Under the pieces are notes generated by a model. That model worked only from the letters and a program-made list of their open reading frames with translations. It had not been told where the DNA came from and made no database searches. A stretch of DNA of 64,000 bases from an uncultured Candidatus Saccharibacteria bacterium (GTDB lineage Bacteria; Patescibacteriota; CAZHWT01), in the NCBI GenBank assembly GCA_964597145.1, contig CAZQWH010000001.1, positions 15,696 through 79,695 on the forward strand, given 5' to 3'. A program made the position numbers and the translations under genes. Shown piece by piece: positions 19,639 through 63,860 of the stretch (positions within the stretch are counted from its first letter, which is position 1; each line of letters starts with the position of its first letter).

Positions 19639-19765
19639 GCAGTTAGCGCTTTTGAGCTTTGCGTTGTGGCTTTACGTCTTTAAATTTGAGTTTTGACCTT
19701 GTAACCTGTCAAAAGCATGTTGTCTAGTATATGTTTTCTATCTATCTGAGTTAAATAGGGTTAAT

Positions 19766-19790
19766 TATATAATATATTATATAATTCTTT
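19766..19790. promoter_or_regulatory. AT-rich perfect palindrome TTAATTATATAATATATTATATAAT (promoter-like element family, copy 1)
   Basis: Identical 25-mers occur at 42686-42710 and 56661-56685. An interrupted copy lies at 63615-63625 / 63693-63702. Confidence 0.6.
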
Positions 19791-19796
19791 TTTTCG

Positions 19797-20855
19797 TTAT
19801 TTCAGGCCGAGCTGGGCTAGCTTTTGGTGGTATTTTTTCATTATTTCCGATTGATAGTCGTGGGGGTGAAAGGCTAGGCGGTTGGGCTGGATGGTTTCTT
19901 TGGTGGGTTGGCGCATGATGCGCTGCTGGAATTTGTGGGCAAGACTGTCAAGCCAACTCAGGATGCGGGATGCGGTGAACAGTGACGAGTGACGAGTGAC
20001 GAGTGACGAGGTGAGGGGGGTGTCGTCATCCTGAACTTGATTCAGGATCTGGAGATTGGGGTGTTTGTAGAGGCTAGATCCTGAAGCGAGTTCAGGGTGA
20101 TAATGCATTTCGGTCAATGGGATGCGGGGGGTCGGAGGTCGGAGGTCGGAGGCGGATGAGCGGCTTGGGTACCTAGAAGGCTGAAGGCTGAAGGCTGAAG
20201 GCTGGATTTGGGAGGTTGGGAAATTGGGGAGAAAGTCGGTGATCCAGTTATTGATGTGGATATATTGTTCGTAGGTCTGGTGACGATTGAGGATGGGGAT
20301 GATGTGGGCTAGCTCGTTGGCGACGTAGAGGTTACAGTATTCTTCATTCAGATTGTCAATGGATAGCCACATATTGAGGCACAATTTATTATTGACGCGG
20401 CGGGGATCATCGGTTGGTTTGCGACGCCGACCGGTCAGGTTGAGAAGGAGGATGAGGATGAGGCGGGTCAGCCAGAGTCGGTTTCTGTCAGTGATAATCA
20501 GCAAATCAATATCATCGTCGGCTGTGGGGGTACCGCCGGCGACGGAGCCGGTGATGGCGACTAAATTAATCCAAGGGATTAGCCTAAAAATCCAGAGGGA
20601 TTTTTGGGCAGTTTGTAGTTTGTAGTTTGTAGTTTGTAGTTGGTATTTTTTTTGTTTTGCTAATTCGTTACGATTGTTTAATGTCCACGTGTTGTCTTGA
20701 TGTTTGAAGCTGGGTGACTGAACTTTGGACAGCCATTTGATATCTTTCAATTCATGTTGGATCAGATATTTTGATAATTCTTCGGTGGTGAGGGCCTGAT
20801 TGAATAGGTCAGCGTAAGCAAGAGTTTTAATGATGGCGGATTCGAGTTTATCCAT
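19797..20855 (-). CDS. Pol-beta-superfamily nucleotidyltransferase-domain protein carrying in-frame heptamer repeats and a 60-bp repeat element
   Basis: Canonical NTase motif ITGSVAGGTPTADDDIDLLIITD with a downstream acidic strand NMWLSID. The reading frame runs through (CAAACTA)x4, (GAAGGCT)x4, (GGTCGGA)x3 and (ACGAGTG)x3 tracts and through repeat copy E. Confidence 0.5.
   Translation of the reverse strand: MDKLESAIIKTLAYADLFNQALTTEELSKYLIQHELKDIKWLSKVQSPSFKHQDNTWTLNNRNELAKQKKYQLQTTNYKLQTAQKSLWIFRLIPWINLVAITGSVAGGTPTADDDIDLLIITDRNRLWLTRLILILLLNLTGRRRKPTDDPRRVNNKLCLNMWLSIDNLNEEYCNLYVANELAHIIPILNRHQTYEQYIHINNWITDFLPNFPTSQIQPSAFSLQPSRYPSRSSASDLRPPTPRIPLTEMHYHPELASGSSLYKHPNLQILNQVQDDDTPLTSSLVTRHSSLFTASRILSWLDSLAHKFQQRIMRQPTKETIQPNRLAFHPHDYQSEIMKKYHQKLAQLGLK
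20031..20099. repeat. GTCATCC...GATGAC-family composite palindrome, copy E (inside the NTase ORF)
   Basis: gtcatcctgaacttgattcaggatctgg...agatcctgaagcgagttcagggtgat. Confidence 0.6.
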
Positions 20856-20949
20856 GGCTAGTTAGTTGTAACAGATTGGGAATTAGTTAGCAAAAAGAAA
20901 TCCCAGCAGGTTAATACCGCGCTGGGATAATGAATAGCAAGGTGAAATG

Positions 20950-21276
20950 CTACGGGCCAGGTTTGTTCCAAGCTTCACGCTCGGCCTGGATGGCCTGCCA
21001 TTCTTCCGAAGCGTCGTCAATGTCGGCGTGCGCCTGGTTGACTGCATTGAGCTGGACTTGTCGGGAAATCCATTGCTCTAGTTCATGCTGGGCTGCTTCA
21101 ACCGCCTGTGGATTACTCTGAAAGTTTGCTCTCCAGACTAAGGCAAAATCGGCCAATTTGGCGGCAAAGTCTTCGGTAAACTTCGGCTGTTTGAGTAAGT
21201 CTGGATCAGCATCTCGCAAGAATTCGGCAAATATTTGCTGCAGCTCGACTCTTGTGTCGGCGTCTTGGGCACTCAT
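20950..21276 (-). CDS. hypothetical acidic protein
   Basis: 108-aa ORF on the same strand as its neighbours. No family recognised. Confidence 0.4.
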   Translation of the reverse strand: MSAQDADTRVELQQIFAEFLRDADPDLLKQPKFTEDFAAKLADFALVWRANFQSNPQAVEAAQHELEQWISRQVQLNAVNQAHADIDDASEEWQAIQAEREAWNKPGP

Positions 21277-21415
21277 GTTGCTCTCCTTTTCCAGCTGGCT
21301 TCACGAAAGCGAACTTGGAAGGATTATAGCATAGTTTTTTCAGATACAGCTGACGACAACTGAAAACAAAACCCCCTCGAACACAGAAATGTGCTGAGGG
21401 GGTGACAAGGAATCT

Positions 21416-21757
21416 TTAGGTTGAGACACCTGGGTCGTTGGTCCACACACCTCGACCACCAATGGCGGTATGACTAAAGACTACTGCTTCAATAATTTCA
21501 CGACGAAGACTTACTTCTATCCCTTCTTTGAAAATGGGCAAAATAAGCTGCTCGGCTTTGGTTGCATCGACATGGTTGGCGCAAACCGCGACATAGATTT
21601 CTCCCCCAAAATTGAGGAGGGTTGCTGTTGCGTGAAGTCTGGCGATGGTTGCCACCCATTGGGCAGTTGCTGCACACACCCTAGCCTGGTTGATAGATTC
21701 AAAGGCAACCACTTTAATCGATACCTCTTCGCGTATGATCTGAGTATCGTCTGGCAT
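21416..21757 (-). CDS. hypothetical protein
   Basis: About 113 aa from MPDDTQ, or 121 aa with the track start at 21781. Alternating beta/alpha pattern. No family recognised. Confidence 0.4.
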   Translation of the reverse strand: MPDDTQIIREEVSIKVVAFESINQARVCAATAQWVATIARLHATATLLNFGGEIYVAVCANHVDATKAEQLILPIFKEGIEVSLRREIIEAVVFSHTAIGGRGVWTNDPGVST

Positions 21758-21914
21758 TCTCTTTACCTCTCTCTTAAGCAAAGGACTTCCTCCAAGATCT
21801 TAAAGACTATATAACATGATTTAATGTAAGCGTCAAAAATGATTTCGAATGAAAAAGCAAAAAATATACCCCCAGTCTTCAATGAGTCTGAGGGTATTGG
21901 CCTTCGCTGGGTGG

Positions 21915-22493
21915 TTAGTGAATCACTTGCAAAGGCCCTCTACGGAGTAATTGCTCCGTCTTTTTTTTCAACCGTCCCCTAAAGTCTTCCTCGATGGTAG
22001 TGCTTGTCTGGGTAGACTGGCTTTGCCAGTGCTTCCAGTCCAACACCAAGTCAAGCAGTTGGCCAGCAAGATAGTTGGCCAACTGGGGGTTCTGGTTAAG
22101 GCCGGGTAGGGGCTGTTGCACCAGCCGGGCCATGATTGGTTGCAGCTCTCTCCGAATTCTTTGCTGGAGGTAATAGTCCTCCCAAGTGCCACCTCCTCGG
22201 TCGGTAACATTCTGGGCAACCTCCCGAACGAGCTGCTTGAGTGAGTTCGTCATGGTCGCCTGTCGAATCTTGACGGTTTGGTTGCTACTTTCAGACTCAA
22301 TAGTAACGATATAGCACGGCTCGTCAGTATCCTTGGCCAAGTCAGCCAAGAGCTCGGGTGGCAAATTATGGACCTCAGACAAGAACACCAGATTGAGTAG
22401 ATATTCCTCTAGGTATGGGTCCAAGCTGTCGCAGTCTAGTCTCCACCACTGGGAGTATCCGCCACGGATTGTACTCTTGATATCAATAATCAC
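21915..22493 (-). CDS. hypothetical protein
   Basis: 192-aa ORF, first gene of the four-gene minus-strand cluster. Confidence 0.45.
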   Translation of the reverse strand: MIIDIKSTIRGGYSQWWRLDCDSLDPYLEEYLLNLVFLSEVHNLPPELLADLAKDTDEPCYIVTIESESSNQTVKIRQATMTNSLKQLVREVAQNVTDRGGGTWEDYYLQQRIRRELQPIMARLVQQPLPGLNQNPQLANYLAGQLLDLVLDWKHWQSQSTQTSTTIEEDFRGRLKKKTEQLLRRGPLQVIH

Positions 22494-22595
22494 GGCTCAC
22501 TCTCCTGGTTGTTTGCGCGATACAATCGATCGATTTGAGTGTCAGAAGTATAGCATAGATTGTCAGATAGTAGCCCATCAGATATACTACACAGC

Positions 22596-23570
22596 ATGAA
22601 AGAACGAGTATTTTCTGGAATTCGGGCCACGGGGCAGCTGCACTTGGGTAACTATTATGGTGCCATTAAAGGCATGCTGGAGTTGCAAGATCAGCATGAA
22701 ACTATTTATAGCGTTGTCGATTTGCACTCCATCACCACACCTGTGGACTATACAACACTACCAGAAAAGATTAGAGGGATTGCTTTAGATTATTTAGCAG
22801 CTGGGCTTGATCCGCAAAAGTCCATATTAATGGTGCAATCGCAGAATCCCGCCCATCTAGAATTAGCCTGGATATTAGGTGTTTTTGTCCCAGTGACCTG
22901 GTTGTCTCATTTACCTACCTATAAAGACAAAAAGGCTCAGCATCCAGATTTTGTCAATTGGGGGCTACTTTCGTATCCGGTGCTCATGGCGGCAGACATT
23001 TTGGCCTACAAGGCCCCTCTAGTGCCGATTGGCAAAGACCAGGAGCCTCATTTAGAAATAACCAGGGAAATTGCCCGTAAATTTAATAAACAATTTGACT
23101 ATGATTTTCCTGAGCCAAAAAGTTTTGCTACAAAAGGCTACTCACTGCCGACATTAATGGGTGATGCCAAGAAAATGAGCAAATCGGTGGAAGGGAGCTA
23201 TATTGCACTTTCCGATAATCTGCCCACCATACAAAAAAAGTTGGCCAAAGCCCCAACCGATACCGGCAATGAGCCAGAGTTGAGTCAAGGAACACAAAAT
23301 CTATTTGCCTTGATGGAGCTGTTTAGTCCCAAAGATATCACAGAGCAATTTCGGGCCGCTCGTCAGGATGGATCAATTCGGTATGGAGATATGAAGAAGC
23401 GTCTAGCCGATGATATCTTTGTGGAGCTAGCACCCGTACAAGAGCGACGTCGCGAGATTGAAGCAAAGTCGGGATATGTGGAAGAGGTGTTGGTTGCAGG
23501 AGCTGAAAAAGCTCGAAAGATTTCGGAGCCGATACTTAAAGAGGTGAAAGAGCTAGTGGGGCTAGGGTAG
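22596..23570 (+). CDS. trpS: tryptophan--tRNA ligase
   Basis: GIRATGQLHLGNYYGAIKG (HIGH-region equivalent) and KKMSKS. I took MKERVFSG as the start. Confidence 0.9.
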   Translation: MKERVFSGIRATGQLHLGNYYGAIKGMLELQDQHETIYSVVDLHSITTPVDYTTLPEKIRGIALDYLAAGLDPQKSILMVQSQNPAHLELAWILGVFVPVTWLSHLPTYKDKKAQHPDFVNWGLLSYPVLMAADILAYKAPLVPIGKDQEPHLEITREIARKFNKQFDYDFPEPKSFATKGYSLPTLMGDAKKMSKSVEGSYIALSDNLPTIQKKLAKAPTDTGNEPELSQGTQNLFALMELFSPKDITEQFRAARQDGSIRYGDMKKRLADDIFVELAPVQERRREIEAKSGYVEEVLVAGAEKARKISEPILKEVKELVGLG

Positions 23571-23730
23571 GCGTGAGCATGGCGGGCAGGTCTTGGTTGG
23601 GTACAGAAGATTGCTTCATTACATTCGCAATCACGGACAATCTCTTCTACAGACTACAGACTACAGACGATAGACTAAAACCCCCGCCCGCCACGCAAGC
23701 CAGCTTGCTGGCGTTGCGGGCAGGTAAAAC

Positions 23731-24171: not shown

Positions 24172-24192
24172 TTTTTATCTCCTTTACTGCAT

Positions 24193-24252
24193 GTCATTCT
24201 GAACTTGTTTCAGAATCCAATCACTTAGATCCTGGATCAAGTCCGGGATGAC
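24193..24252 (-). promoter_or_regulatory. ~60-bp composite-palindrome element, copy A, 21 nt upstream of the hsp20 start codon
   Basis: In the gene orientation it reads GTCATCCCGGACTTGATCCAGGATCTAAGTGATTGGATTCTGAAACAAGTTCAGAATGAC. It is near-identical to the copy upstream of dnaK. Confidence 0.7.
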
Positions 24253-24474
24253 AAGTCTGAGTAAGTATCATCTCAGCCTTGTCAACTTACCTAACTCACT
24301 ACCAACTACCATATACTTACAGTAGCTAGGTTGCTGCAAGCACGCACATGCCGAAGATAGATGCCAATCTTCGGTTGTATGTGCGGATGATTGATATGAA
24401 ACCCACCTCCCAACTAATTCTTACCCATCTGTCAAAACAGAAATTAGCTGAGAGGTGGGTTCGTTTGGATGTAG

Positions 24475-24642: not shown

Positions 24643-24738
24643 GGGCAGTCTCCTTAAATGTACTAGTAGATATACTCTAGCTGTCTAACAACGCAAGGGT
24701 GGGAGCTAGACAGCTAGATGATTCATGACAATAGTGGT

Positions 24739-27104: not shown

Positions 27105-27120
27105 AAGGGTTATTTATATT

Positions 27121-27510: not shown

Positions 27511-27846
27511 TTAAGTTAAGAGTGGTAAGGTCTAAGTTAGAAGTAAAAACACCCCGCCCCTGAGCAGGGTGTTTTGTTGCACCTTAAGCAGAGAGCGGCT
27601 GCAGCATCGATAGCAACCAGTTAAGCTCATCAGCCCCAGCTTCATGATTGTGTGTCTCTCTCGGCTGGCGCAGATAGAGCAAACGCATGCCTCCGTTGCA
27701 GCTGATAACTAAACCAGTGGCAGCATCGAACTGTACATTGAGCGTGACTGCTGAAAAACAAGCGTAACTAGCTTCGCGAACTGGACGCATTTGGCGGTTA
27801 TGCCCTTCACAGAGATCAGCAGCATCGGCATAAGCGGTGTAAAATG

Positions 27847-28723
27847 TAACCCCGGGGGTTAAATGAGCTTGAACCTAGGTTGCCTGCTTATTTCGAATGA
27901 GAAACGAGTGTGTTAGTCAGAAACAACGCCCTGGCCTTCGTGCAATAAGTGTTCAAGAGACTTGAGACTCTTTTGATAGTCAGCTTGGTTTAAAACAAAG
28001 TTGCAATAAGAATGCACATCATTGAACATACTTAAAACTGGGGCAGTGGTAATAAACGAATTCTTGCCTTTTATATAAAGTGGCAATGACGACCAAGGAT
28101 AAGAAAGAATCCCATTTGGGGTTTTTACAAGATAGGCGGTTGACGGATTTAAGTGGATGTAGCGCGATACATGGCTCAGCTGCTCAGCAGTCTCTATTCG
28201 CACAGCCTTAAAGGATGGCAAAAATAGCGTGCCTTTACGTGCATGTTTCAAGTTATAGTAACGAGTATAACTATTTTGAAGTTGACCTAAATATCTTGAA
28301 ATACCATCGTCTTTAACTTGTCTGAGTAATAAGTGGAAGTGGTTAGGCATTATGCAGTAGGCAATCACTTCAACCAAGCGCGACGATGGACTCCAGTTTG
28401 CGCGTATAGCCGCCTGCTGTTCTGAATTAAGAGCTAAATATCGTGAAAAACTAATTGTATTTGCTCCATAGCAGTAAAACTCTAGGCCAGATAGTATTCT
28501 GCGATATTCACGCAAGTCAGTAAATGTTTGACGCTCATCCTGTCCGCGATTAAAAACATGGTATATTTGCCCGTTGCATATAGGATAAATTCTTCTCATA
28601 CGACCCCCAATTAAGTACAACATGGGCAGTGCAGTGAATAACATCAACATATACGCCTCTGCATGCTGATTGTCAAAGTAAACAACCAACCTAGGTTCAA
28701 AGCTGTTTAACCTCGGGGGTTAA
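27847..28723. mobile_element. RAYT/IS200-like element: Y1 HUH transposase flanked by inverted REP-like hairpin repeats
   Basis: Left end 27847-27886 (taaccccgggggttaaatgagcttgaacctaggttgcctg) and right end 28684-28723 (caacctaggttcaaagctgtttaacctcgggggttaaac) are reverse complements of each other. They enclose the transposase gene. Confidence 0.7.
27913..28599 (-). CDS. REP-associated tyrosine transposase (RAYT) / IS200-IS605-family TnpA (Y1 HUH)
   Basis: IYHVFNRG...YCIMPNHFHLLLRQ (HUH motif) ...SYTRYYN (catalytic Tyr region). Start chosen at MRRIYP. The track ORF extends to 28689. Confidence 0.75.
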   Translation of the reverse strand: MRRIYPICNGQIYHVFNRGQDERQTFTDLREYRRILSGLEFYCYGANTISFSRYLALNSEQQAAIRANWSPSSRLVEVIAYCIMPNHFHLLLRQVKDDGISRYLGQLQNSYTRYYNLKHARKGTLFLPSFKAVRIETAEQLSHVSRYIHLNPSTAYLVKTPNGILSYPWSSLPLYIKGKNSFITTAPVLSMFNDVHSYCNFVLNQADYQKSLKSLEHLLHEGQGVVSD

Positions 28724-28976
28724 ACAGTTATTTCATATTGTTTTTACGAATTGAAGGTTTTAGTCATGATGACTGTGTATTTAGTGATCTAATCTGGTCA
28801 CCAAATGCATGACGTAAATCCCTAGAAATTGCCAGATTGCTGTGGTATAGTGCGGCTGGTTGTAATTGTTTGCTTTTACAACGTTTCACCTTGAAAAAAC
28901 GAATACACAAAAACCCATCCAAGTAATACCATGAATGGGTTTGAGAATAACGTAATGTATTTGTGTGCCAATTACA

Positions 28977-29279
28977 TTATTTTTCCGAATCAGGAAAAAC
29001 ACTGTGACGCAGGTTGAGATTATTTTTATTACCTACTTCAAGTAGCTCTAAAATAGCCTTAACCCCTGCTAGGTTCACACCCTTTTTGCGGGTTAAAAAT
29101 TGAATAAATTCCAATCGACGAATGTCGTTTTGGCTATAGCGACGACGATTAGTTTTGGTGCGATGTGGAACAACGAGTTGCTCTGTTTCGTAAATCATTA
29201 AGGTTCGCGGATGAACACCGAGCAAATCGGCCGCAACGCTAAGAGTAAACAAGGGTTTATCTAAGTTTAACTCCGGCAT
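28977..29279 (-). CDS. hspR: MerR-family heat-shock repressor HspR-like
   Basis: FTLSVAADLLGVHPRTLMIYE...RTKTNRRRYSQNDIRRLEFIQFLT.KKGVNLAGVKAILELLE closely matches the HspR HTH and dimerisation helix pattern. Confidence 0.7.
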   Translation of the reverse strand: MPELNLDKPLFTLSVAADLLGVHPRTLMIYETEQLVVPHRTKTNRRRYSQNDIRRLEFIQFLTRKKGVNLAGVKAILELLEVGNKNNLNLRHSVFPDSEK

Positions 29280-35218: not shown

Positions 35219-35706
35219 GCCTTGACTCCTTTTGATTACAGCCCATCACAAAATCTGAGTGAGTGTATCACTATAGGACTAATATGTCAAAAATGTTGAG
35301 TGACGGGTCTGGAATAGCAAATAGCAGATAGCAATAAGCAATATGCAGAGGACGGAAGGTTGAAGGTGGTGCCAGCGAAGCTGTTGGCTATCAGGTGTCA
35401 GGTTTTAATCATTTTGGGATTTCTGATCTCAGATTTGTTTCGAGTTTAGAATTTCAAATTTCGTATTTAGAACCAAGAGTCACCATGTCTGTCATTCTGA
35501 ACTGAAAGTGAAGAATCATACTTTGAAGGTTGAAGGTAGTATTTGGTATGTGGTAGGGGTAATGCTAGGGCATTGGCTGCCATTTGCCATCTGCTAGTTT
35601 AAGGACATCCAACAACAAACCGGAGTGGCGGGGGTAAAAACCTTAGCCAGCTCCGGTTGTTGTGAATATATTGTTGTTTAAACATAGGCAGTGGTACGTA
35701 GATTAC

Positions 35707-37252: not shown

Positions 37253-37424
37253 ACGCGAAGCGTCTACCAACATACGCAAGTTAGAAACAAGAAATTAGAA
37301 ATTCTAAACAAACGAGAAACTTGAAAACATTAATTTGGGAACACATTCCATATGTTATTTATTTAGAATTTGTTTCCTATTTCGGATTTATGATTTCAAA
37401 TTTTGAAATGGAGATTATAGAAAC

Positions 37425-37946: not shown

Positions 37947-37998
37947 AAGTTGGGAAATAGTAGGCAGTTGACGAGACTGAGATAATTTCAACTCAGGT

Positions 37999-38059
37999 TC
38001 GTCATCCCGGACTTGATCCGGGATCTAAGTGATTGGATCCTGAAACAAGTTCAGGATGA
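37999..38059 (+). promoter_or_regulatory. ~60-bp composite-palindrome element, copy B, 31 nt upstream of the dnaK start codon
   Basis: GTCATCCCGGACTTGATCCGGGATCTAAGTGATTGGATCCTGAAACAAGTTCAGGATGAC. It has the same orientation as copy A relative to the downstream gene. Confidence 0.7.
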
Positions 38060-38090
38060 CAATAGGAAATAATTAAAGGAGGAACTTTGT

Positions 38091-40001: not shown

Positions 40002-40021
40002 ATATCTAAGTATCTAGGAAA

Positions 40022-40168
40022 CGTCATTGCGAGGAGCAGAGCGACGAAGTAATCTTGATAGGCTTTGTGTCATCCTGAATTTAGTTCAGGATCAGGCATT
40101 AGATGCTGAAACTAGTTCAGCATGACATTGGGTTTAGGTAGATTGCCGCGCTTCACTCGCAATGACCA
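40022..40168 (+). promoter_or_regulatory. nested repeats upstream of dnaJ: GTCATTGCGAG / CTCGCAATGAC arms enclosing copy C (40069-40126) of the 60-bp element
   Basis: Copy C: gtcatcctgaatttagttcaggatcaggcattagatgctgaaactagttcagcatgac. The outer arms match the 19543-19638 element. Confidence 0.65.
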
Positions 40169-42528: not shown

Positions 42529-42562
42529 CTATCCTTCCGTTCAAGTAGAAAATTGATAAGAG

Positions 42563-42598
42563 TAGCGCCGGTGAGGTCAACCCTCCCCGGCGCTTTTT
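42563..42598 (+). terminator. rho-independent terminator
   Basis: agcgccgg-N16-ccggcgct followed by TTTTT. Confidence 0.7.
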
Positions 42599-42669
42599 CA
42601 AATCTTTCCCGCCATCCCCGCATACCAGCATACTTGCATACCAACCTATCAACCATGTATGAAAATTAT

Positions 42670-42712
42670 TACAGAGATAAATCATATTAATTATATAATA
42701 TATTATATAATT
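42670..42712 (+). promoter_or_regulatory. promoter-like element ACAGAGATAA-N8-TTAATTATATAATATATTATATAAT (copy 2)
   Basis: Same composite as at 56643-56685 and, degenerately, 46729-46752. Confidence 0.55.
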
Positions 42713-43106
42713 AATTACACTACTGAAATTTCAAAAACATCATCAAATTACTCTATGGCAATCAAATTAATTAAAGACTACAAAGGGGCAAGCTCATCTT
42801 GACTGAAGCAGGTAAATTTGCTATAGTGCAAAAGATTTTGAATGTAGCTGTGGTAGTGTATGAAGGCGGTCCAATAGGTCCGTTTTTTTATTACACATAG
42901 CTTGTTAAAAATGTTGAATAATGAAAAGTGGAAATGATAAAACTAATTCGAAATAATATCACTTTAAAGAAATTTTAAAGAAATGGATTAGTTTTTTCGC
43001 TATTCGCTATTCGAATTTCAGATTTGAACTACTTAGATTCTCAGGCAAGCTGAGAATGACACAAATAATGCGAGGCTAGTGGATTAGTCCGCAAGGAGAA
43101 TTTTTT

Positions 43107-44330: not shown

Positions 44331-44432
44331 GCATTGGTCGACAGTCGACAGTCGGTCATGTTAAGTTACTTAGGTAACTTAGGGTACTTAAGTAACTTAA
44401 AACCCATAAACTAAGAACTAAAAACGATATAT

Positions 44433-46569: not shown

Positions 46570-46769
46570 ATATAATAATTACCAAATAAAACCCGAAACA
46601 ACAACAAACAAGCAATGCAGTAAGTGAGTTAAGTATCTAAAGGTGCTTAAGCCGCTTAGACATACGACTTCCGTTGACTTCCTATAGGTTCTATGATATA
46701 ACGTACTATCAGTCTAAATTTCATATATTTACAGAGATAAAATTATTATAATATAAAAATATTTGGCTT

Positions 46770-48361: not shown

Positions 48362-48369
48362 ACAATTAA

Positions 48370-48480
48370 ATTCAAAATCAGAATAGCGAAATTAGAAACA
48401 AGATTTAAATTAGAAAAACTAAAATTTGCGATTTCATATTTCAAATTTCTGGCTTTAATGAATTATTAAAAGCAATTATT
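48370..48480. repeat. AT-rich inverted-repeat spacer between rpsO and pnp (gaaattagaaa / tttcaaatttc word family)
   Basis: cgaaattagaaacaagatttaaattagaaaaactaaaatttgcgatttcatatttcaaatttctgg. Confidence 0.55.
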
Positions 48481-51949: not shown

Positions 51950-52009
51950 GGGCAAGTTTTAGCTTGCCAGAAGATGATAGTTAGTTGGCGAATATGAGAA
52001 AATTCTACT

Positions 52010-52046
52010 CAGATTTGTCATCCCGGACTAGATCTGGGATCTAGCG
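52010..52046 (+). repeat. partial copy D of the GTCATCC...composite palindrome (first hairpin only), upstream of rnj
   Basis: gtcatcccggactagatctgggatctagcgtc. Confidence 0.5.
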
Positions 52047-52128
52047 TCAGTAATTTGAAAATTATGGATAGCCTAATGGCTACCACCTGTGGTTATTACA
52101 GAAATTAAAGAAAGAAGGAATTACATTT

Positions 52129-54054: not shown

Positions 54055-54076
54055 CGCCAATTTAATTTGGATTACA

Positions 54077-54127
54077 GCGCCAAGCGCCATGAAATATGTA
54101 ACTTAAGTAGTCTAAGTAGCTTAAGTT
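54077..54127. terminator. perfect 17-bp inverted repeat after rnj (gaaatatgtaacttaag / cttaagttacatatttc)
   Basis: Member of the cttaagt / acttagg word repeats also seen at 44341-44400, 45960-46020 and 46611-46660. No clear T-run follows, so terminator function is uncertain. Confidence 0.4.
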
Positions 54128-54457
54128 ACATATTTCTATCTTCGGCCTTCTACCTCCAAACTCCGATTCTCCGTCATCCTCAACCTGCCTGCACTGAGCT
54201 TGTCGAAGTGATCGAGGATCTAAAAAGCAGTATATCTACACACTCCCATTGCATCCCAGCTTGCCTGAATAGAAAAGTAATAGCTTTGGCCTTTGCCTTT
54301 TGCTCTTTAATCTTTTTCTTGCACATCCGAATACCTGCATTCCAGACTACCGCAACAACGATGTTGTTGCGCGTAGTGTATAATAATTGTGCTAGCAGGC
54401 TAGTTGCTCCTAATATTATTTTCAAGTTTCGAATCTCAAGTTTTGAATTTTTAACGT

Positions 54458-56611: not shown

Positions 56612-56642
56612 CCCTTATACACTCCTTATTACAGTAAAATAA

Positions 56643-56685
56643 CAGAGATAATTTAGATTAATTATATAATATATTATATAATACT
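56643..56685 (+). promoter_or_regulatory. promoter-like element ACAGAGATAA-N8-TTAATTATATAATATATTATATAAT (copy 3)
   Basis: Identical palindrome 25-mer, with the ACAGAGATAA box upstream. Confidence 0.55.
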
Positions 56686-56839
56686 TTAGTAGACAGGAAG
56701 CCTTACGCCTAAAATCAAATCTCCCCAAATCCCTCAACACCCATAACTCAGATCTCCAAACCAACTCCACCTTCCCGTCATCGCGAGGCGGAGCCGTGGC
56801 GATCTTCCGTAATCTACCCAGATGACTCAGTTGTTAACA

Positions 56840-57942
56840 CTCTTTCGCAATGGGCATAATATCCAAAAAGTGTGCTATTATACGCCTTTTATCCCTGTTA
56901 GTTGCCCAACATTCTTGAAACAGTTTAGCAATGTACTAAATTAGACTCCTCAAAACGTCCTCAAGTATGTCCTTGCTGTGGTCATCATCAGGTTCGGCGC
57001 AATGGTCGAAGTGCTGCTGGCAAACAGCGCTGGCGCTGCATAGCGTGTGACCACTCTTTTAGCCGCACTAATCCTGCTCAGCGACAGCGTCTCCAAGCGA
57101 CATGGTTTAAAAAGTGGGTTAAAGGTGGCTACACCATTACTCAATTAATGGAGATTTCCGGCCACAGCTGCAGCCACCTCCGTCGGATTATACTGGCCAA
57201 TCTTGAGCATACTCCGCCTCTACCAGAAGATCTTTCAGGTCACGCTCATCTTATCTTTGATGGCAAATTCCTCTTTGGTCGAAGCAACAGTCTCATTGTG
57301 CTCTTGGATGCCACCACCCACACTCCTCTAGCGGGTAAAGTCGTCCCCTCGGAAAGTGGTAAGTATATTCAGCCCTGGCTGGAAGGACTGCGGCAAGCAG
57401 GGCTCAACCCGACCTCCGTCACCCTGGATGGCAAACCCGGGGTTGAGCGGGCATTTCAAAACGTGTGGCCGACCATTCAGACACAGCGCTGTATTTTCCA
57501 CCTTGTCCTGCAAACCGTTGCCTGGCTCCGAGCGAAGCCTCGGTATGCGTCAGCCAAGGCTTTGAAGAGCCTTGTCCTCACCCTACCGGCCGTCACCACC
57601 TACACTCAGGCGCTCTTTTTTCAACAGCAGTATGAGCAGCTACTGACTAGGCATCAAGAGGAGTTATCTCAGTTAGACCCTACTCACCCAATCCAATCTG
57701 ATGTGCTAAAGGCCTACACCCTGATTGGCAATGCTCTGCCGCAAACATTTACCTATCTCACCGACTCGGCCATTGCGCCAACAACTAGCGCCCTAGAGGG
57801 TTATTTTAAGCAGGTGCAGAAGATTAAAGGGTTTATCCATAACGGATTGACACGACCGCATCTATTTCAATTCTTGTGTTGGCGTATTTATTTTGATCTA
57901 TAGAGCACACTTTTTGAGTATTGTGCCCGCAATGACGCATAA
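56840..57942 (+). mobile_element. IS1-family insertion sequence (single-ORF type) with ~35-bp imperfect terminal inverted repeats
   Basis: Left end cgcaatgggcataatatccaaaaagtgtgct (about 56842-56875). Right end agagcacactttttgagtattgtgcccgcaatg (about 57906-57940). These are reverse-complementary. Confidence 0.6.
56929..57903 (+). CDS. IS1-family transposase (InsA-like zinc ribbon and HTH fused in-frame to InsB-like DDE domain); N-terminal part lacks an ATG/GTG/TTG start
   Basis: The open frame from 56929 reads ...CPCCGHHQVRRNGRSAAGKQRWRCIACDHSF... (InsA zinc-ribbon-like) then GYTITQLMEISGHS (HTH), continuing into the track ORF 57148-57903 (LIFDGKF...VTLDGKPGVE...). The first canonical start is the ATG at 57148, so the gene may be decaying, or may use a non-canonical start. 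Confidence 0.55.
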   Translation, partial: QCTKLDSSKRPQVCPCCGHHQVRRNGRSAAGKQRWRCIACDHSFSRTNPAQRQRLQATWFKKWVKGGYTITQLMEISGHSCSHLRRIILANLEHTPPLPEDLSGHAHLIFDGKFLFGRSNSLIVLLDATTHTPLAGKVVPSESGKYIQPWLEGLRQAGLNPTSVTLDGKPGVERAFQNVWPTIQTQRCIFHLVLQTVAWLRAKPRYASAKALKSLVLTLPAVTTYTQALFFQQQYEQLLTRHQEELSQLDPTHPIQSDVLKAYTLIGNALPQTFTYLTDSAIAPTTSALEGYFKQVQKIKGFIHNGLTRPHLFQFLCWRIYFDL

Positions 57943-58066
57943 GCCCCTTCCGTCTACTAACTACTCCCGACCAACTACTGCAACGACGCCGTCGCTGCAA
58001 TGCTTGCTAGTTCAGCTTTAGCCCATTACTTGCTATTATGATGCAGAAGCATATCAAGCTGCCTCT

Positions 58067-59083
58067 ATGACTCCTCGACGCCGAATCCATCCCGAATCAT
58101 CCCCTCAGCGGACCTTAAATACGAAGCGCACTGGTGATATTTTGCGCCAAGCCCGCCAAGCTCGTGGTGAAAGCCTCGCCCAAGTCAGCCAAGCCATTAA
58201 GGTTCGGGTCTCCATGTTGCAGGCAATCGAGGCTGGCCACTTCTTTGGCTTAACCGACCCGTTATACCTTAAAGGTTTTATCCGAGCTTATGCCGACCAT
58301 CTCGGATTGGCAGAGTCAGAAGTCATGCCCTTCTTTCGCCGAGAATACGATGAGCAACAACACCAACAGCAACTAGCCAAGCCTCTAGCCCCTATTGAAC
58401 CCAAAAAACCCAAAATTACTCCCGGTCGCGTTATAGTGACCATATTAACCATTGCGATTGTGGCGGTGGTAGGGTATAGCTACAATCAATATGTGTCGGT
58501 CGCTCTCACCCCTAAGCTCGAGTTAGTTTCTCCAGTAGATGCCAGCACTGCCGCATCTGGCCAAGTGCTTGTCAAAGGCACCACCGACGCCGACGCCCAA
58601 CTCAGTTTAAATGGACAACCAGTTACCTTAACTCCAGCTGGCGATTTCGAGCTAACCGTAGCCTTAGCCTTAGGCACAAATACCCTCCAACTAAAATCCG
58701 TCAATAAGCTGGGTAAATCCACGGTAGTTGAGCGGACTGTGATTGGTCCACCACGCTTAGCTCAAGCACTTTTGCCTACACCCACCCCAACAGTTTTAGC
58801 CGAATCCACTTCAGAGAGCCAAGCCACTAGTTCGGCCACTCTGTCCGAAGTGGTGGTCGAGGTTAACATTGGGCCTTCGTCGGCCTGGATTGAAGTCCAA
58901 ACCGACGGCCAGCCAGCATTCTCAGGATTAATGTTGCCAGGCTCCACCCAATCATATGCAGGCACCCGCGATATTCACCTCAAAACTGGCAATGCCGGCT
59001 CAACCAGGGTCTCGCTCCACGGCGTAGACCAAGGTCTGCTGGGTAAAGATGGAGAAGTGGTCGAAAAAACTTACCGAAAGTAA
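58067..59083 (+). CDS. RodZ-like protein (XRE-type HTH, TM segment, C-terminal DUF4115-like domain)
   Basis: ILRQARQARGESLAQVSQAIKVRVSMLQAIEAG (HTH_XRE), a central TM helix (ITPGRVIVTILTIAIVAVVGY), and a C-terminal beta-rich domain. Confidence 0.55.
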   Translation: MTPRRRIHPESSPQRTLNTKRTGDILRQARQARGESLAQVSQAIKVRVSMLQAIEAGHFFGLTDPLYLKGFIRAYADHLGLAESEVMPFFRREYDEQQHQQQLAKPLAPIEPKKPKITPGRVIVTILTIAIVAVVGYSYNQYVSVALTPKLELVSPVDASTAASGQVLVKGTTDADAQLSLNGQPVTLTPAGDFELTVALALGTNTLQLKSVNKLGKSTVVERTVIGPPRLAQALLPTPTPTVLAESTSESQATSSATLSEVVVEVNIGPSSAWIEVQTDGQPAFSGLMLPGSTQSYAGTRDIHLKTGNAGSTRVSLHGVDQGLLGKDGEVVEKTYRK

Positions 59084-59314
59084 GTTTTTGGTAGTTAGTA
59101 GTTGGTATATAGTATTTAGCAAAAGCAACTATCAGCAAATATACGGCTGATGGACAGCAATTAAATCTTCCTAGATACTAGATACAAAATACTAGATACC
59201 GAAAACCGGAGACTTCTTCGGTAGCAAGTAGTAAGATTTTGCAAAAAGGCATAGTTTGCCGTTAAACTTAACTATCTGCTAGCTACTAACTACTAAAAAT
59301 CGGAGATTTTTATT

Positions 59315-61087
59315 GTGTGTGGAATATTTGGATTTATCGGTAAACAACCGAACGCAGCCGAAATAGTATTAGCCGGATTAAAAGAGCTAGAATATCGTGG
59401 CTACGATTCTTGGGGTGTTGTGATTAAAACGGATGCTGGCCTGGCCGTAGAAAAAGAAGTGGGCAAGATTGGCAGCCGTACATCGTCTTTACCTGCCGCA
59501 ACTATTGGTTTGGGGCACACCCGTTGGGCAACCCATGGGGCAGTTACTCAAGCGAATGCTCACCCTCACTTAAGCTGCGCCAACCGAGTTGCCGTCATTC
59601 ATAATGGCATTGTCGAAAATTACGAAACACTCAAGTCCACCTTAGCTGGCCACCATCGTTTTGTTTCCGAAACCGATACCGAAGTGGTGAGCCACGCCAT
59701 TGAGCAAGCCCTTGATAACGTACCATTTACCCAAGCCGTGCGGCAGGTATTTGCAACCTTGGCAGGCATGAATGTTATTATTGCTCTCGATTCCCAGTCC
59801 AACCAGATGGTAGCCGGCAAGAAGGGCTCACCGTTGGTTTTAGGCATAAACGATGAGTCTATATACATAGCCTCAGATGCTTCGGCTATTTTGCCACATA
59901 CTCGCCAATTAATATTTGTTGAAGACGGTTGGCTAGTTGAGATTAACCAGCTCAATGGTAAGCCACTCTGGAAAATTCGTGAGGCTCAATCCGGAAGAGT
60001 AGTGAAGGTTAAGCCACAAACTATCGACTGGACAATACTCGAAACCGATCGAGGCAACTTTGATCATTTCATGATTAAGGAGATTTTTGAGCAACCCAAA
60101 GTCTTGCGCCATTTAGCGAGCCAAGCCGAAGAAAAAGTTGGATCTTTAGCCAAAATGATAGCCGATTCGTATGGCTCGTTTATGATTGGCTGCGGAACCG
60201 CCTCATATGCAGCTCTTTCTGGTACGTACGTATTTTCCCGCGTTGCCCGGCAACACGTTAACTTTGTAGCGGGCAGTGAGTTCTTTTACCAAGAACAATA
60301 TTTAACCCCCGATAGTTTAGTTATCGCTATCTCCCAAAGCGGTGAAACCATGGATATTGTGGAATCAATCCAGTTAGCCAAAAAACATCGATCCAAAGTT
60401 GTGGCCGTCACCAACTCGCTAGGCTCAACCTTGTACCGCATGGCTGACGGCAGTGTAATGCTCGATGCCGGAGTAGAAAAAGCAGTCTGTTCCACCAAAG
60501 CCTTTACCGCCATGGTTGGAGTTCTACTACTATTAGCCTATCGGATTAATAACGATTTAGTACTAGCCAAAGACCTCCTGCAGCGGGCGGCCTCCAGTAT
60601 TGAGACTATGCTGCAGCCAGAGCGGCTAAAGCAAATTAAACAGGTGGCCGAATATATTAAAGGTTACGAGCACATGTTTATGATTGGACGAGGACTGTCA
60701 TACGCTGCCTCATTAGAAGCCGCCCTCAAGATTAAAGAAGTCAGCTACATTCACGCCGAAGGCTTTGCTGGTGGCGAACTAAAACATGGCGTTATTGCCT
60801 TAATCGAAACCGGCACACCTTGTATGGTATTTGCGCCCAACGATGAAACTGAGGCAGCCATTATCTCTAATGCCATGGAACTCAAATCCCGCGGCGGTTA
60901 CATCATTGGCGTTGGCCCTCAGCAGCACTCGGTATTTGATGTGTGGATTCAAACCGACGATGTGGGCGATGCCTCTATTATTACCAACGTCGTACCCGCC
61001 CAACTCCTTGGCTATTACTTGGCCGTAGCCAAAGGCTATGATCCCGACAAACCTAGGAATTTGGCCAAGAGTGTAACAGTTAAATAA
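59315..61087 (+). CDS. glmS: glutamine--fructose-6-phosphate aminotransferase (isomerising)
   Basis: GTG start followed by CGIFGFIG (catalytic Cys1), then two SIS domains. Confidence 0.93.
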   Translation: MCGIFGFIGKQPNAAEIVLAGLKELEYRGYDSWGVVIKTDAGLAVEKEVGKIGSRTSSLPAATIGLGHTRWATHGAVTQANAHPHLSCANRVAVIHNGIVENYETLKSTLAGHHRFVSETDTEVVSHAIEQALDNVPFTQAVRQVFATLAGMNVIIALDSQSNQMVAGKKGSPLVLGINDESIYIASDASAILPHTRQLIFVEDGWLVEINQLNGKPLWKIREAQSGRVVKVKPQTIDWTILETDRGNFDHFMIKEIFEQPKVLRHLASQAEEKVGSLAKMIADSYGSFMIGCGTASYAALSGTYVFSRVARQHVNFVAGSEFFYQEQYLTPDSLVIAISQSGETMDIVESIQLAKKHRSKVVAVTNSLGSTLYRMADGSVMLDAGVEKAVCSTKAFTAMVGVLLLLAYRINNDLVLAKDLLQRAASSIETMLQPERLKQIKQVAEYIKGYEHMFMIGRGLSYAASLEAALKIKEVSYIHAEGFAGGELKHGVIALIETGTPCMVFAPNDETEAAIISNAMELKSRGGYIIGVGPQQHSVFDVWIQTDDVGDASIITNVVPAQLLGYYLAVAKGYDPDKPRNLAKSVTVK

Positions 61088-61304
61088 CTGGCATAATCTA
61101 AGCCTCAAAGCCAAAGCTTTGGTTGCAGGCAGGGTGGAGAATGGAGTATAGGACGAAGCTCAAAATCCTCGTCCAAAGAACGACCGTTCTCTGGAAGAAA
61201 AAGGTCAAAACTTTTCTTTTCTCTTCTCTTCGCCAAATCACAAAATACTATCTCCTACCTCCAATCTCCTCTCCCTTCAGCCAGCCATTTGCTACAATAA
61301 AAAT

Positions 61305-63374
61305 ATGTTTGAAAGCTGGAGCTATATACCCCAAGAAATGAATAAACCGGAGGCTCAATCGGAAGCCGAATTAAATTCGCCCGAAACCGCTATTCACTAT
61401 CCCGAATTAATCGCCAATGAACCATTACCTAATACCACGCTTGTTTATTCGGTACCAGTTATGGGGGAATGGCGTAACGGCAACTTGCTGCGTTTTTTAC
61501 GGAGTACGTTCGCCCAAAAGGTGGCAGATAGCGAAGCGTTTGAGGTAGAGTTAGTCGCTAATACTGGACACTGGGTTGAGAGGCTACAGAATTGCGATCC
61601 CAATACATTTGAACCCATGGTCGACAAACAGGGTAATGCCATTATCGATGAGCAATTAGATCTGGGTGCTACAGCTAGACTCCAAGCCATGCTTGACGAG
61701 TCAGATCAAGCGGTCGAGTTTCTGCGTAAAGTAGTAGACGCCCAACGATTAGCCCGTACCAGCACCAGTTTAGAAGCGTTAACCCATGCCAACACCCAAC
61801 TTGAGTCTCTCATCGCCAGTGAGACTGAAGTGTTGCAACAGCAGATTCTGCGGTTAGCTGCCGAAAAGGCTAACTCCATTAGTCTAGCCATTGCCGATAT
61901 GACCCGTAAGTCGCTTCGCGATACTCCATACCATAGTACCAACCTTAGTTCATTACGAACGCTGGGCGCCGATTTAGCCAGAACACGATTTGAGGCAAAT
62001 CCAGATCTTGTTTTACATCTATTTGATGCCGATACTATCATGGCCACCAACGATACAGTCAGGCAAACCCAGGCGATATTTAAGCAACACCCCGAGCTAA
62101 ACTATTTGTTTTCTAATATGAGCAACGCCCCCACTGGCACAGAGCAGGCGCTTGTTGCCGATTCACCGCGAGAAAATGTCCGGCGAACAAAGAGCTATAA
62201 TAGTGATTATGTGCATGGGTCACCACAGATTGCCTTTCGTATGCGCGCCTATGAAAAGCTAAAAGAACTTTCCGGTTGGAAGGATACAGGGTTCGAAGGC
62301 GACGAAGATCGGGATACATCACAACGGCTCGTGTATCACTTTGGCAAACTACAGGACGGGCTATTATTTGAAGCCAGCGCAGATTTACAGCCAACAGTCA
62401 TGACTGGAGATCGGCTTGATGGCGCTGTAGATTCGGCTGGACGTAAGATTGGATATGAGGCTGCGGGTATTCGGCACATCACCAATGATATTGGTCGAGT
62501 CTATGAACTTCAAGATAAAATTGAAAACCTTATTTTAGCCGAACCGCCAGATAAACAGGCCAAGATTCGCTTAAGTTTGAGCAATGCTCGGCATCATTTT
62601 AAGCGAGAGCAGCAAGTGCAACAGCGTTTTAATCGCTGGCTATTAAAGAGTTTTGTCACTGCCGTCCAAATGGGCCACATATCCTTGGCTGAGGGTAAAT
62701 TACACTACAATGATGGCCAGATAATGAGCTTGCGTGGGGGAGAAGCATTACTTCACTATATTAAATCCAACCCGGTTTTGATTAGTGAAACAGTCGCCGA
62801 TTCTAGGGTAGTTGCCTATATCCAATCCTGCTTAGACAAAAATGATAGCTCAACCGCTGAATATACAGAAGTGCCACCTTTTTACCAGGCTATTGGAGAA
62901 TATATAGGCGAAGTCAAACTGGTTAGTCAGTTGATTGAGGACGGGCTACTAACCAAACCACAACCGGAAATAAAAACCATATATGGTAAGTATCAACAGG
63001 AAACATGGCACCCACAGGATAAGCGAACAACTAAAGATCGAGTATCTTTTATGCACTCAATGGTAGCCGAAACCTTTGCCTTAAACGCAGTATATAAAAT
63101 ATTTTTCGAAGTTAAAGAGCTAGAGAGACAAAAGCGTGATACCTACAATTGGCCCGCCGACCCCAACGAGCAAGAACTCCGAATGAATTTCCCCGACTCC
63201 GAAACCCGGTGGCAAACCATGCAGCAATGGATGGATACTCAAGGAACAGAAATACCGCAACCAGTCTCCGCCGATCCAGTGGGAGAGTTGGGGCAATGGC
63301 AATCAGTTCCCATGTCAAAACTGCTCGGCCGATTACGCTCGGGTTTCAGAAGTCTAACCAAATCGCAGCGGTAA
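61305..63374 (+). CDS. large hypothetical soluble protein
   Basis: 689-aa ORF with coding-like composition. It contains HLFDADTI (a DxD-like box), but no family is confidently recognised. Confidence 0.45.
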   Translation: MFESWSYIPQEMNKPEAQSEAELNSPETAIHYPELIANEPLPNTTLVYSVPVMGEWRNGNLLRFLRSTFAQKVADSEAFEVELVANTGHWVERLQNCDPNTFEPMVDKQGNAIIDEQLDLGATARLQAMLDESDQAVEFLRKVVDAQRLARTSTSLEALTHANTQLESLIASETEVLQQQILRLAAEKANSISLAIADMTRKSLRDTPYHSTNLSSLRTLGADLARTRFEANPDLVLHLFDADTIMATNDTVRQTQAIFKQHPELNYLFSNMSNAPTGTEQALVADSPRENVRRTKSYNSDYVHGSPQIAFRMRAYEKLKELSGWKDTGFEGDEDRDTSQRLVYHFGKLQDGLLFEASADLQPTVMTGDRLDGAVDSAGRKIGYEAAGIRHITNDIGRVYELQDKIENLILAEPPDKQAKIRLSLSNARHHFKREQQVQQRFNRWLLKSFVTAVQMGHISLAEGKLHYNDGQIMSLRGGEALLHYIKSNPVLISETVADSRVVAYIQSCLDKNDSSTAEYTEVPPFYQAIGEYIGEVKLVSQLIEDGLLTKPQPEIKTIYGKYQQETWHPQDKRTTKDRVSFMHSMVAETFALNAVYKIFFEVKELERQKRDTYNWPADPNEQELRMNFPDSETRWQTMQQWMDTQGTEIPQPVSADPVGELGQWQSVPMSKLLGRLRSGFRSLTKSQR

Positions 63375-63860
63375 AGGAAAAGGTCGACAATGAAAAAGGG
63401 ATTGCGGCTTTGTGGTCATTTCTTTACCAACCGAATGCAACATATGCTCCGCCGAGCTCCAATAAAAAGGTTATAGAGAAAGTCATAAGCTCATCCTTAA
63501 AATAGTCATCCACTGGGCGAAAAAAGCAAAGATTAAAACTAAGACCCAAAACACTGTCCTCTTAATGCTCACTACGAATCACAGAGTTATTTAGGGTTAA
63601 TTATATAATTGCCACAATAGGGTATACATCCAATACCCTATTGTCATCCTCAATTAAATTGAGGAACCGCCATTATATAATTAAATTTATTAATAAATAC
63701 TAAATACCAGATGCCATTTACTAGCCACCACATCAGCTTTAGCCAATGCCTGCCTGCTAGCCAAATTGACGGTTGCAATGCTACAATGTAACAAGATATA
63801 GTAACTATCCAACCAAGTAGTAACTCTGAGTTAATTTATTAAAAAGTTGAAGGAACTGCC

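Follow-up and report, generated by a model that had tools for sequence, protein, structure and literature searches.

We identified a short DNA module that recurs between the genes of a 64,000-nucleotide stretch (the window) of contig CAZQWH010000001.1 from an uncultured Candidatus Saccharibacteria bacterium. The module consists of an oriented box that is followed, at a fixed distance, by two or three tandem AT-only dyads, and it is well supported as a real, structured and oriented repeat. In about 67 kb of this genome we found five full copies, or about one per 13 kb; four are inside the window, and the other lies 2.6 kb beyond its left edge. The reading that we prefer, tentatively and with slightly less than even confidence, is that the module is a lineage-specific dispersed intergenic repeat of the kind of the repetitive extragenic palindromic (REP) sequences, bacterial interspersed mosaic elements (BIME) and BOX elements. 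It would be recognised by a protein and located at the borders of transcription units, and its copies would arise by insertion or duplication and be partly retained.

The module and its copies

The copies in the window and one site that carries only the box are listed below; sequences outside the window are designated by L numbers. A profile of the module found no additional copy in the window.

19745-19787, + strand: module copy 1; box TCTGAGTTA at 19745-19753, AT-rich linker, units ATTATATAAT at 19764-19773 and 19776-19785, then TCTTTTTTT; profile E = 5e-10
42669-42715, + strand: module copy 2; box TTACAGAGATAA (ACAGAG at 42671), units at 42690-42699 and 42702-42711, within a 30-bp perfect palindrome
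46729-46752, + strand: box-only site, not a member of the family; box TTACAGAGATAA in the nrnA 5' leader; profile E = 9.3
56640-56684, + strand: module copy 3; box TAACAGAGATAA (ACAGAG at 56642), units at 56661-56670 and 56673-56682
63579-63684, + strand: module copy 5 (split); box TCACAGAGTTA (ACAGAG at 63581), unit 1 at 63600-63609, insert at 63610-63671, unit 2 at 63672-63681

The 25-mer TTAATTATATAATATATTATATAAT was found exactly at 19761-19785, 42687-42711 and 56658-56682; exact 22- to 25-mers shared three times in the window were not expected at all (0 in shuffled sequences). An earlier note on this DNA had described a perfect 25-bp palindrome in three places (19766-19790, 42686-42710 and 56661-56685). 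Three exact 25-mers do exist, but the positions given there deviate by 1-5 nt, and the 25-mer as such is not perfectly palindromic; the stretches of perfect symmetry are 22-30 bp long and lie at 19763-19786 (24 bp), 42686-42715 (30 bp) and 56661-56682 (22 bp). At their core the 10-bp dyad ATTATATAAT occurs twice, with 12 bp from one start to the next. All eight exact window copies of this 10-mer are inside modules (0.1 expected), and allowing one mismatch added only two further, unrelated sites. The central dinucleotide differs (AT, TA, TT or AA) and the units are constant, each carrying an exact TATAAT on both strands, as in the -10 region of sigma-70-type promoters.

The fifth copy (copy 0) was found on a contig of the same strain walked leftward (L077, 101-162). 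It has three tandem units, which read ATTATATAAT-TA-ATTATATAAC-TA-ATTATATAAT, and therefore the "palindrome" is better called a short tandem array of a 12-bp unit with the dyad ATTATATAAT as its core. At least two identical dyad units at a fixed phasing characterise the family: the 12-bp phasing was seen in window copies 1-3, L077, L029, L054, L004, L016, L063 and L083, the exceptions being L060 (22 nt start to start) and the split copy 5 (72 nt).

The box has the consensus C[A/T]GAG[A/T]TA and is 7-10 nt long. Between box and units there is an AT-rich linker of 8-9 nt, variable in sequence and fixed in length, and then TTA. When the full copies are placed side by side the register is constant, with the start of the box 19 nt ahead of the first ATTATATAAT, or, expressed otherwise, with 17 nt between ACAGAG and the first TATAAT. 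This 19-nt register was found in copies 0, 1, 2, 3 and 5, in L029, L054 and L060, and also in L083. The sequence ACAGAGATAA is exact in the window at 42671, 46731 and 56642 only, so that the box previously noticed ahead of copies 2 and 3 was confirmed. The third of these sites, at 46729-46752, had been taken for a degenerate copy of the module, and it had to be removed from the family as only the box fits the profile; a similar box, CTACAGAGTAAAG, is found at the comparable position in the relative L057.

The intact palindromes fold weakly as AT-only stems (-4 to -8 kcal/mol), with z scores that are not significant against shuffles. No RNA family was found by Rfam at or near any copy with the gathering and E-value thresholds, and a tRNA scan of the window found none. 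A small open reading frame (ORF) spanning the palindrome was ruled out, the reading frames being different between copies.

Position relative to genes

The window has about 46% G+C and is about 19.5% intergenic. All five copies are intergenic and have one common orientation, which is that of the gene upstream; placement is recurrent, oriented and non-random, in agreement with the earlier note. The genes on either side of copy 1, 17981-19444 (+) and 19797-20855 (-), are convergent, and the stop codon of the second is 11 nt away from the copy. Copy 2 is found 85 nt ahead of the -35 of the nusA promoter, behind a GC-rich hairpin with a T-run that closes the upstream gene (about 42567-42600; this hairpin was read by eye and not listed by the terminator scan). 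Copy 3 begins 29 nt past the ftsK stop (56611), and 170 nt beyond it begins an IS256/IS1249-like insertion sequence (IS), with ends at 56852-56876 and 57904-57928. Copy 5 is 205 nt past a gene of 689 aa and 180 nt ahead of a 123-aa/YtxH gene pair, and copy 0 is 125 nt ahead of a small ORF. The copies occupy the gaps between transcription units: a terminator or stop codon precedes them, and the promoter of the next gene lies well downstream of them.

Over all family members the context is co-directional in seven cases, convergent in two and divergent in none. The distance from a stop codon to the box or palindrome is about 11-45 nt for copy 3, L083, L054, L063, L004 and copy 1 (to the (-) gene). 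Only copy 1, L004 and L016 have a T-run behind the palindrome; a U-run is lacking in copies 2, 3 and 5. None of the modules was called by the terminator scan, which also found no other terminator past ftsK. Short-read contigs of the same strain end at the module (L073, L075, L076). A search for empty sites at the strain level in Logan contigs of the species gave identical sequences throughout, with no polymorphism.

Relatives of the module and conservation

The nearest named matches of NusA and FtsK were from WWE3, Gottesmanbacteria and Daviesbacteria, with 51-67% identity. A genome scan with the 22-mer core over species representatives, which do not include the source genome, gave 25 loci, nearly all of them chance matches in AT-rich genomes, the only real relative being one metagenome-assembled genome labelled Saccharibacteria (L004, L016). 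With the pattern of box plus half-site, a metagenome scan gave 28 loci, of which only L029 and L054 were family members; a large SAR11-like promoter family in the same scan was a false lead. Viral scans and plasmid BLAST showed nothing relevant, and a search of the literature for such a motif in the Candidate Phyla Radiation (CPR) found none. The relatives differ as follows.

L029: centre TA; 217 nt ahead of tRNA-Lys
L054: centre TT; about 45 nt past the stop codon of a small gene
L060: box and offset unchanged, units spaced by 22 nt inside a 46-bp perfect palindrome; between two co-directional genes
L063: 8-bp cores ATTATAAT with the 12-bp phasing kept; 8 nt past a stop codon
L004: same 22-24-mer core, box out of register; 18 nt past a stop codon and 167 nt ahead of tRNA-Ile
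L016: same 22-24-mer core, box out of register; convergent with tRNA-Leu

The variants in L060 and L063 are altered symmetrically, on both arms, and no genes are shared between the window and L004, L016, L029 or L054.

L083, the closest relative available (FtsK 91% identical), has the module at the orthologous site after ftsK, at 2807-2852, where it reads AACAGAGATA-gtagtatt-TAATTATATAAT-aa-AATATATAAT. The ftsK-rodZ spacers of the window and L083 share just three alignable islands: a decamer past the stop codon, the module, and the rodZ promoter. In the module island the box is identical at 10/10 positions, TTAATTATATAAT at 13/13 and unit 2 at 9/10, while the linker has diverged with its offset kept; the footprint of conservation is box plus units, with the linker excluded. 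As judged from this alignment, copy 3 is under constraint or homogenised against other copies. No module was found after ftsK in L084 (FtsK 73% identical), where the spacer is 202 nt long, GC-rich and unrelated, or by the profile search in about 64 kb of L057, L059, L065 and L084. By these comparisons the family is patchy at the level of the clade, persistent at the level of the species and locally abundant.

Promoters of the flanking genes

The nearby genes were found to have promoters of their own.

42799-42827, + strand: nusA promoter, TTGACT-17 nt-TATAGT with TG, conserved; followed after a short leader by a weak terminator at 42865-42889
58031-58039, + strand: extended -10 TGCTATTAT of the rodZ-like gene, conserved, about 25 nt ahead of the ATG

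Six relatives (L057, L059, L060, L062, L063 and L065; NusA 79-94% identical) share TTGAC(T/C)-17 nt-(TG)nTATA(G/A/C)T upstream of nusA, in all six followed about 50 nt on by a terminator hairpin, and none of the six has the module there. The nusA promoter is thus separate and conserved, and the module is not the nusA promoter. The nrnA promoter, TTGACT-17-TATAAC at 46674-46702, is conserved in L057 and L065, and the ACAGAGATAA box is downstream of it, within the leader. As the extended -10 of rodZ is conserved, copy 3 is not needed as the rodZ promoter. By these alignments, the lineage employs ordinary TTGACA/TATAAT promoters.

The box (ACAGAG or TCTGAG) matches a TTGACA-type -35 at no more than two of six positions and does not qualify as one. 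A consensus promoter scan, the total calls of which were not above those in shuffles, never called the module on the strand of the box. The calls that overlap modules are on the opposite strand: CTGAAA-18-TATAAT at 19805-19776 (10 of 12 positions) and TTGAAA-16-AATTAT at 42734-42707. A sigma-70 promoter would also be expected upstream of a dependent, co-oriented gene; nusA, nrnA and rodZ have nearer promoters, and copy 1 and L016 are convergent with the next gene. The comparative evidence makes it well supported that the module is not the housekeeping promoter of its neighbours. Of the promoter-like module proposed in the earlier note, the geometry of a box, 17 nt and TATAAT stands, and the role as promoter of the downstream genes does not.

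The nusA leader (42799-42892 and its counterparts in the same six relatives) consists of the promoter, about 40-50 nt, and a hairpin with a T-run, the stem of which has a T.T mismatch in the window and in L065. This hairpin could be an attenuator through which NusA would control its own operon.

The split copy

The two half-sites of copy 5 (63597-63609 and 63672-63684) are separated by a gap of 62 bp.

63610-63671, + strand: insert of 62 bp; hairpin 1 at 63614-63644 (12-bp arms, 7-nt loop); hairpin 2, CCTCAATT-AAA-TTGAGG, within 63649-63667

The insert stands exactly in the place of the central dinucleotide. When copy 5 is folded as a single strand, pairing of its half-sites encloses the two hairpins in a junction (-35.7 kcal/mol, z = -6.7). 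The structured insert with two hairpins had been noticed earlier and is indeed at the exact centre, although it is 62 bp long and not about 65. CCTATTGTCATCC and hairpin 2 resemble a family of GTCATCC-hairpin repeats. This family has members within ORF 19797-20855 and ahead of dnaK, dnaJ, hsp20 and RNase J, and no such site is an AT palindrome. Neither hairpin 1 nor the insert as a whole had a second copy in the window, plasmids or viral contigs. No direct duplication flanks any module copy (the half-sites are inverted), as it would in a miniature inverted-repeat transposable element (MITE), and the 25-bp ends of the only IS in the window (56852-57928, IS256/IS1249-like) are unrelated to the module. 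The single interrupted copy shows insertion at the dyad centre and not target specificity. A MITE specific for the palindrome, as once proposed, is therefore not supported, because the other GTCATCC-hairpin copies sit outside palindromes.

Copy 5 is located at the right border of a local rearrangement. When L084 (12393-14960) was compared with the window (58067-64000), the 128-aa/YtxH pair of L084 was directly after rodZ, and in the lineage of the window glmS and the 689-aa gene, of unknown function, are between rodZ and the YtxH pair.

Interpretation

That box and units would both be recognised by something is well supported, because their spacing is fixed, they are conserved across genomes and they form a conserved island in L083. 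Since the nearby genes have conserved promoters of their own, a dispersed repeat is favoured, one that a sequence-specific protein probably recognises. One protein dimer would bind each dyad unit and the box would supply the polarity of the site, and insertion or duplication into intergenic DNA would yield new copies, some of which would be retained. At the boundaries of operons the module might act at the level of DNA, for instance by serving as a topological boundary or, when bound, as a roadblock; alternatively, the enzyme responsible for its spread may recognise it. The presence of four TATAAT hexamers would be a by-product of the AT dyad, and any transcription driven by them would come from a -10-only promoter. 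Other dispersed palindromic repeats are abundant in this genome, which also encodes a Y1 transposase that resembles the REP-associated tyrosine transposases (RAYT).

Several points weigh against the dispersed repeat. The binding protein is putative, the palindromes on both sides of the window's RAYT-like gene belong to another, GC-containing family, and the weak AT-only hairpins are unlike classical REPs. The pair of conserved blocks, with TATAAT as the second and a fixed distance of 17 nt between them, looks exactly like a promoter footprint, and most copies are co-oriented with the downstream gene as well. The sample is small: this genome contributes 5 copies from about 67 kb, and relatives contribute about 7. 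No pair of empty and filled sites with alignable flanks was found, and mobility is therefore inferred from patchiness alone.

The main rival, an auxiliary or alternative promoter (maybe a "mobile promoter"), is unlikely, though it keeps some weight. The box would in that case serve an alternative sigma factor or an activator as an element of the -35 type, with the first TATAAT as the -10, and transcription would start inside the second unit and continue into the downstream spacer or gene. The conservation of two blocks and of their spacing, with a linker that varies, agrees with this, as do the perfect -10 hexamer, the co-oriented downstream genes at copies 0, 2, 3 and 5, L029, L054, L060 and L004, and the position of the module 167-217 nt upstream of tRNA genes in two relatives. 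However, the box is unlike the -35 of the lineage and its strand was never called, and nusA, nrnA and rodZ have their own conserved promoters closer to the genes. The sequence downstream of copy 3 cannot be aligned between the sister species, and there is thus no conserved transcript; in this strain the IS separates copy 3 from rodZ, the promoter of which is intact. Copy 1 and L016 each face a convergent gene or tRNA at its 3' end, and the start site of copy 5 would be in the 62-bp insert. That this Patescibacteria clade has, in the module, a new class of promoter (C[A/T]GAG[A/T]-N17-TATAAT) is quite doubtful. Such a class would be served by an alternative sigma factor or activator, its 2-3 phased dyads would double as operator, and it would spread as a "mobile promoter", with the cruciform apex as the entry point for Y1 hairpin-type mini-elements.

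The earlier idea of an operator or other protein-binding site is compatible with the data. In its specific form, an operator array of one transcription factor (TF) and its regulon, we regard it as improbable. One dimer per dyad would bind cooperatively along the 2-3 units, as MetJ does at metboxes, and act from a distance on the downstream promoter or on upstream read-through. The 12-bp phasing is widely kept (broken in L060 and copy 5), the 10-bp core is exact across different genomes in which the flanks differ, and the module is conserved at the ftsK site. In addition, the box resembles the left half, ACTGAGATAAT, of a repeat upstream of dnaK and hsp20 that is similar to the HspR-associated inverted repeat (HAIR), and an HspR-like gene is present. 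An operator should nevertheless have a fixed position relative to its promoter and be conserved at orthologues. The module is kept after ftsK in L083 and missing at nusA in the six relatives, whose orthologous promoters do without it, and the distance to the nearest real promoter varies from about -85 to -170, being more than 300 at rodZ. The module also occurs in convergent spacers, the downstream genes (nusA, rodZ, the YtxH operon, tRNAs and unknowns) have no obvious common function, and no TF gene is consistently adjacent.

We give little credence to a MITE-like selfish element or an insertion hotspot, in which the half-sites TTAATTATATAAT would be terminal repeats and the 88-bp split copy the full element, or the palindrome apex would attract small hairpin-type elements. 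This would account for the inverted half-sites that flank 62 bp of structured DNA inserted exactly at the dyad centre, for the resemblance of part of the insert to another dispersed hairpin family and for the patchiness of the family among relatives, and a homologue of the Y1 transposases, which are single-strand and hairpin-specific, is encoded in the window. There is just one split copy, though, with no target-site duplication and an insert that was not found again, and neither the other GTCATCC-hairpin copies nor the IS ends point to such an element. Four of the five copies would need deletion to exactly 2 bp, the occurrence of two or three tandem units fits slippage and not an element with terminal inverted repeats (TIRs), and the conservation at the ftsK site points to constraint.

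A weak, partly bidirectional terminator or 3'-end hairpin, in which an AU hairpin in the upstream transcript with a U-run would end or stabilise that transcript, is very unlikely: the position close behind stop codons, the T-runs at copy 1, L004 and L016, the two convergent spacers and the lack of another terminator call past ftsK would fit, but the AU-only stems are no better than shuffles, copies 2, 3 and 5 have no U-run, copy 2 is already behind the normal-looking GC-rich hairpin and T-run seen by eye, the genome otherwise has GC-rich palindromes followed by T-runs, and the conserved oriented box would be left without a role.

Three known kinds of site were rejected. A dif/Xer site (28 bp, 11-6-11, near ftsK), of which there is one per chromosome near the terminus, was ruled out, as the module occurs five times in 67 kb, varies at its centre and also exists with three units. 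A Fur/PerR box was ruled out by inspection, the symmetry being an even 6-2-6 here versus 7-1-7 in Fur/PerR, and a LexA box by the lack of a CTGT...ACAG pair.

Other repeats of the window

The RAYT-like ORF (27913-28689, - strand) encodes the Y1 (IS200-like) transposase homologue, with the REP-associated tyrosine transposase as the best NCBIfam match (50 bits, cut-off 80). It is flanked (27844-28750) by inverted copies of a composite palindrome, CAACCTAGGTTG and TTTAACCTCGGGGGTTAAA, and an orphan doublet of these palindromes lies at 8753-8830. By its sequence, 27844-28750 is a putative RAYT/REPIN-like arrangement in a Patescibacteria genome.

Units of the GTCATCC-hairpin family (GTCATCCYGRAC-loop-GTYCRGGATC), often in inverted doublets, were found at 20008-20105, 24192-24287, 37966-38061, 40068-40130, 52000-52044 and 63637-63670. 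The copies upstream of dnaK and hsp20 are 86% identical over 96 nt, and the pair within ORF 19797-20855 leaves the frame unbroken. The motif CTGAG-N10-CTCAG was seen in the window only upstream of dnaK (37977-37996) and hsp20 (24257-24276), and not in relatives. It resembles the HspR operator HAIR, and an HspR-like gene of the MerR family is encoded at 28977-29279 (- strand; 92 bits, cut-off 105). The HAIR-like left half ACTGAGATAAT is one base off the module box ACAGAGATAAT.

The IS between ftsK and rodZ (56852-57928) has 25-bp imperfect inverted ends and encodes a 251-aa IS256/IS1249-like transposase of the Mutator family; it is missing in L083 and L084, and the insertion is therefore recent. 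Low-complexity heptad tracts (TTTCGAA or AAATTCGAAAT-like) are located at 12174-12222, 13166-13268, 35438-35486, 37285-37408, 42995-43030, 48382-48460 and 54420-54455. They lie just upstream of the starts of groEL, grpE, nusA, pnp and ftsK, the groEL tracts being near groES too, and a similar tract is present in the nusA leader of L065.

A hairpin element of the type CGTCATTGCGAGG...GCGACGAAG(C/T)AATC, which we take to be widespread in environmental bacteria, is present at 12331-12368, 23599-23636, 40021-40055 and 56790-56822. Tandem repeats of 7 bp (CTCCAGA about 10 times, GTGACGA 4 times and AGTTTGT 4 times; 12526-12634, 19983-20010 and 20603-20646) are in part inside predicted ORFs. A 46-bp palindrome, GAAATATGTAACTTAAGTAG...CTTAAGTTACATATTTC, lies at 54091-54136 in the region of the RNase J-ftsK spacer, with related CTTAAGT-rich repeats at 44362, 45986 and 46204 and a similar one in L060 (581-622).

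Significance

Patescibacteria (CPR) have small, streamlined genomes, and to our knowledge almost nothing is known of their non-coding DNA and gene regulation. Dispersed repeats of at least four families are present in the 64-kb window. The constraint on the module at an orthologous site would offer access to a DNA-binding activity in an uncultured lineage, be it a regulator, a nucleoid protein or a repeat-spreading enzyme. A long-standing question would be opened only if the module were an alternative promoter. In practical terms, the module breaks short-read assemblies and can pass for a promoter in annotation, and the real promoters here are ordinary TTGACA/TATAAT promoters that are easily found by comparative alignment.

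Comparison with known systems

A sigma-70 promoter (TTGACA, 17 nt, TATAAT) has in common with the module the perfect TATAAT and a conserved block exactly 17 nt upstream, but the block is C[A/T]GAG[A/T] and not TTGACA, and the conserved promoters of the lineage use TTGAC(T/A). MetJ metboxes (2-5 tandem 8-bp palindromes) are likewise arrays of identical short palindromes in fixed phasing; the module has 2-3 units, and its fixed-phase tandem dyads fit cooperative dimer binding. Within one regulon, metboxes overlap with promoters and are retained at orthologous genes, whereas the modules are distant from promoters, variable in position and not conserved at nusA.

Correia elements (MITEs of Neisseria) and "mobile promoters" are small dispersed inverted repeats with -10/-35-like hexamers, able to create promoters or terminators. 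They differ from the module in their length of 100-155 bp, their 26-bp TIRs and the duplication of TA; the module has no duplication and, except in copy 5, no internal segment, and its promoter activity is only putative. The BOX elements of Streptococcus pneumoniae (boxA - n x boxB - boxC) are modular too, with a fixed oriented end, variable tandem units and intergenic dispersal near genes. Their units of about 45-59 bp are not AT dyads and have no sequence similarity to the module, in which there is no boxC-like end.

REP sequences and BIMEs of enterobacteria and pseudomonads, including the REPINs that are spread by RAYT Y1 transposases, are short extragenic palindromes with many oriented copies at the 3' ends of genes and between operons. 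Like the module, with its five dispersed and wholly intergenic copies, they are patchy between species, can persist vertically and can be bound by host proteins, and the window also encodes a RAYT-like protein. The module differs from them in being AT-only and thermodynamically weak, in its tandem 12-bp dyads and in the separate box 19 nt upstream. Instead of a stable hairpin with a conserved tetranucleotide at its 5' foot it has weak stems and a box 8-9 nt from the stem. The RAYT-like gene is flanked by AACCTAGGTT / TTTAACCTCGGGGGTTAAA palindromes, with no ATTATATAAT within one mismatch near it, and the module is therefore not a REP sensu stricto. Dispersed palindromic repeats are a known kind, and the family described here is a new one in a poorly known phylum, with an unusual build of AT-only tandem dyads and an offset box.

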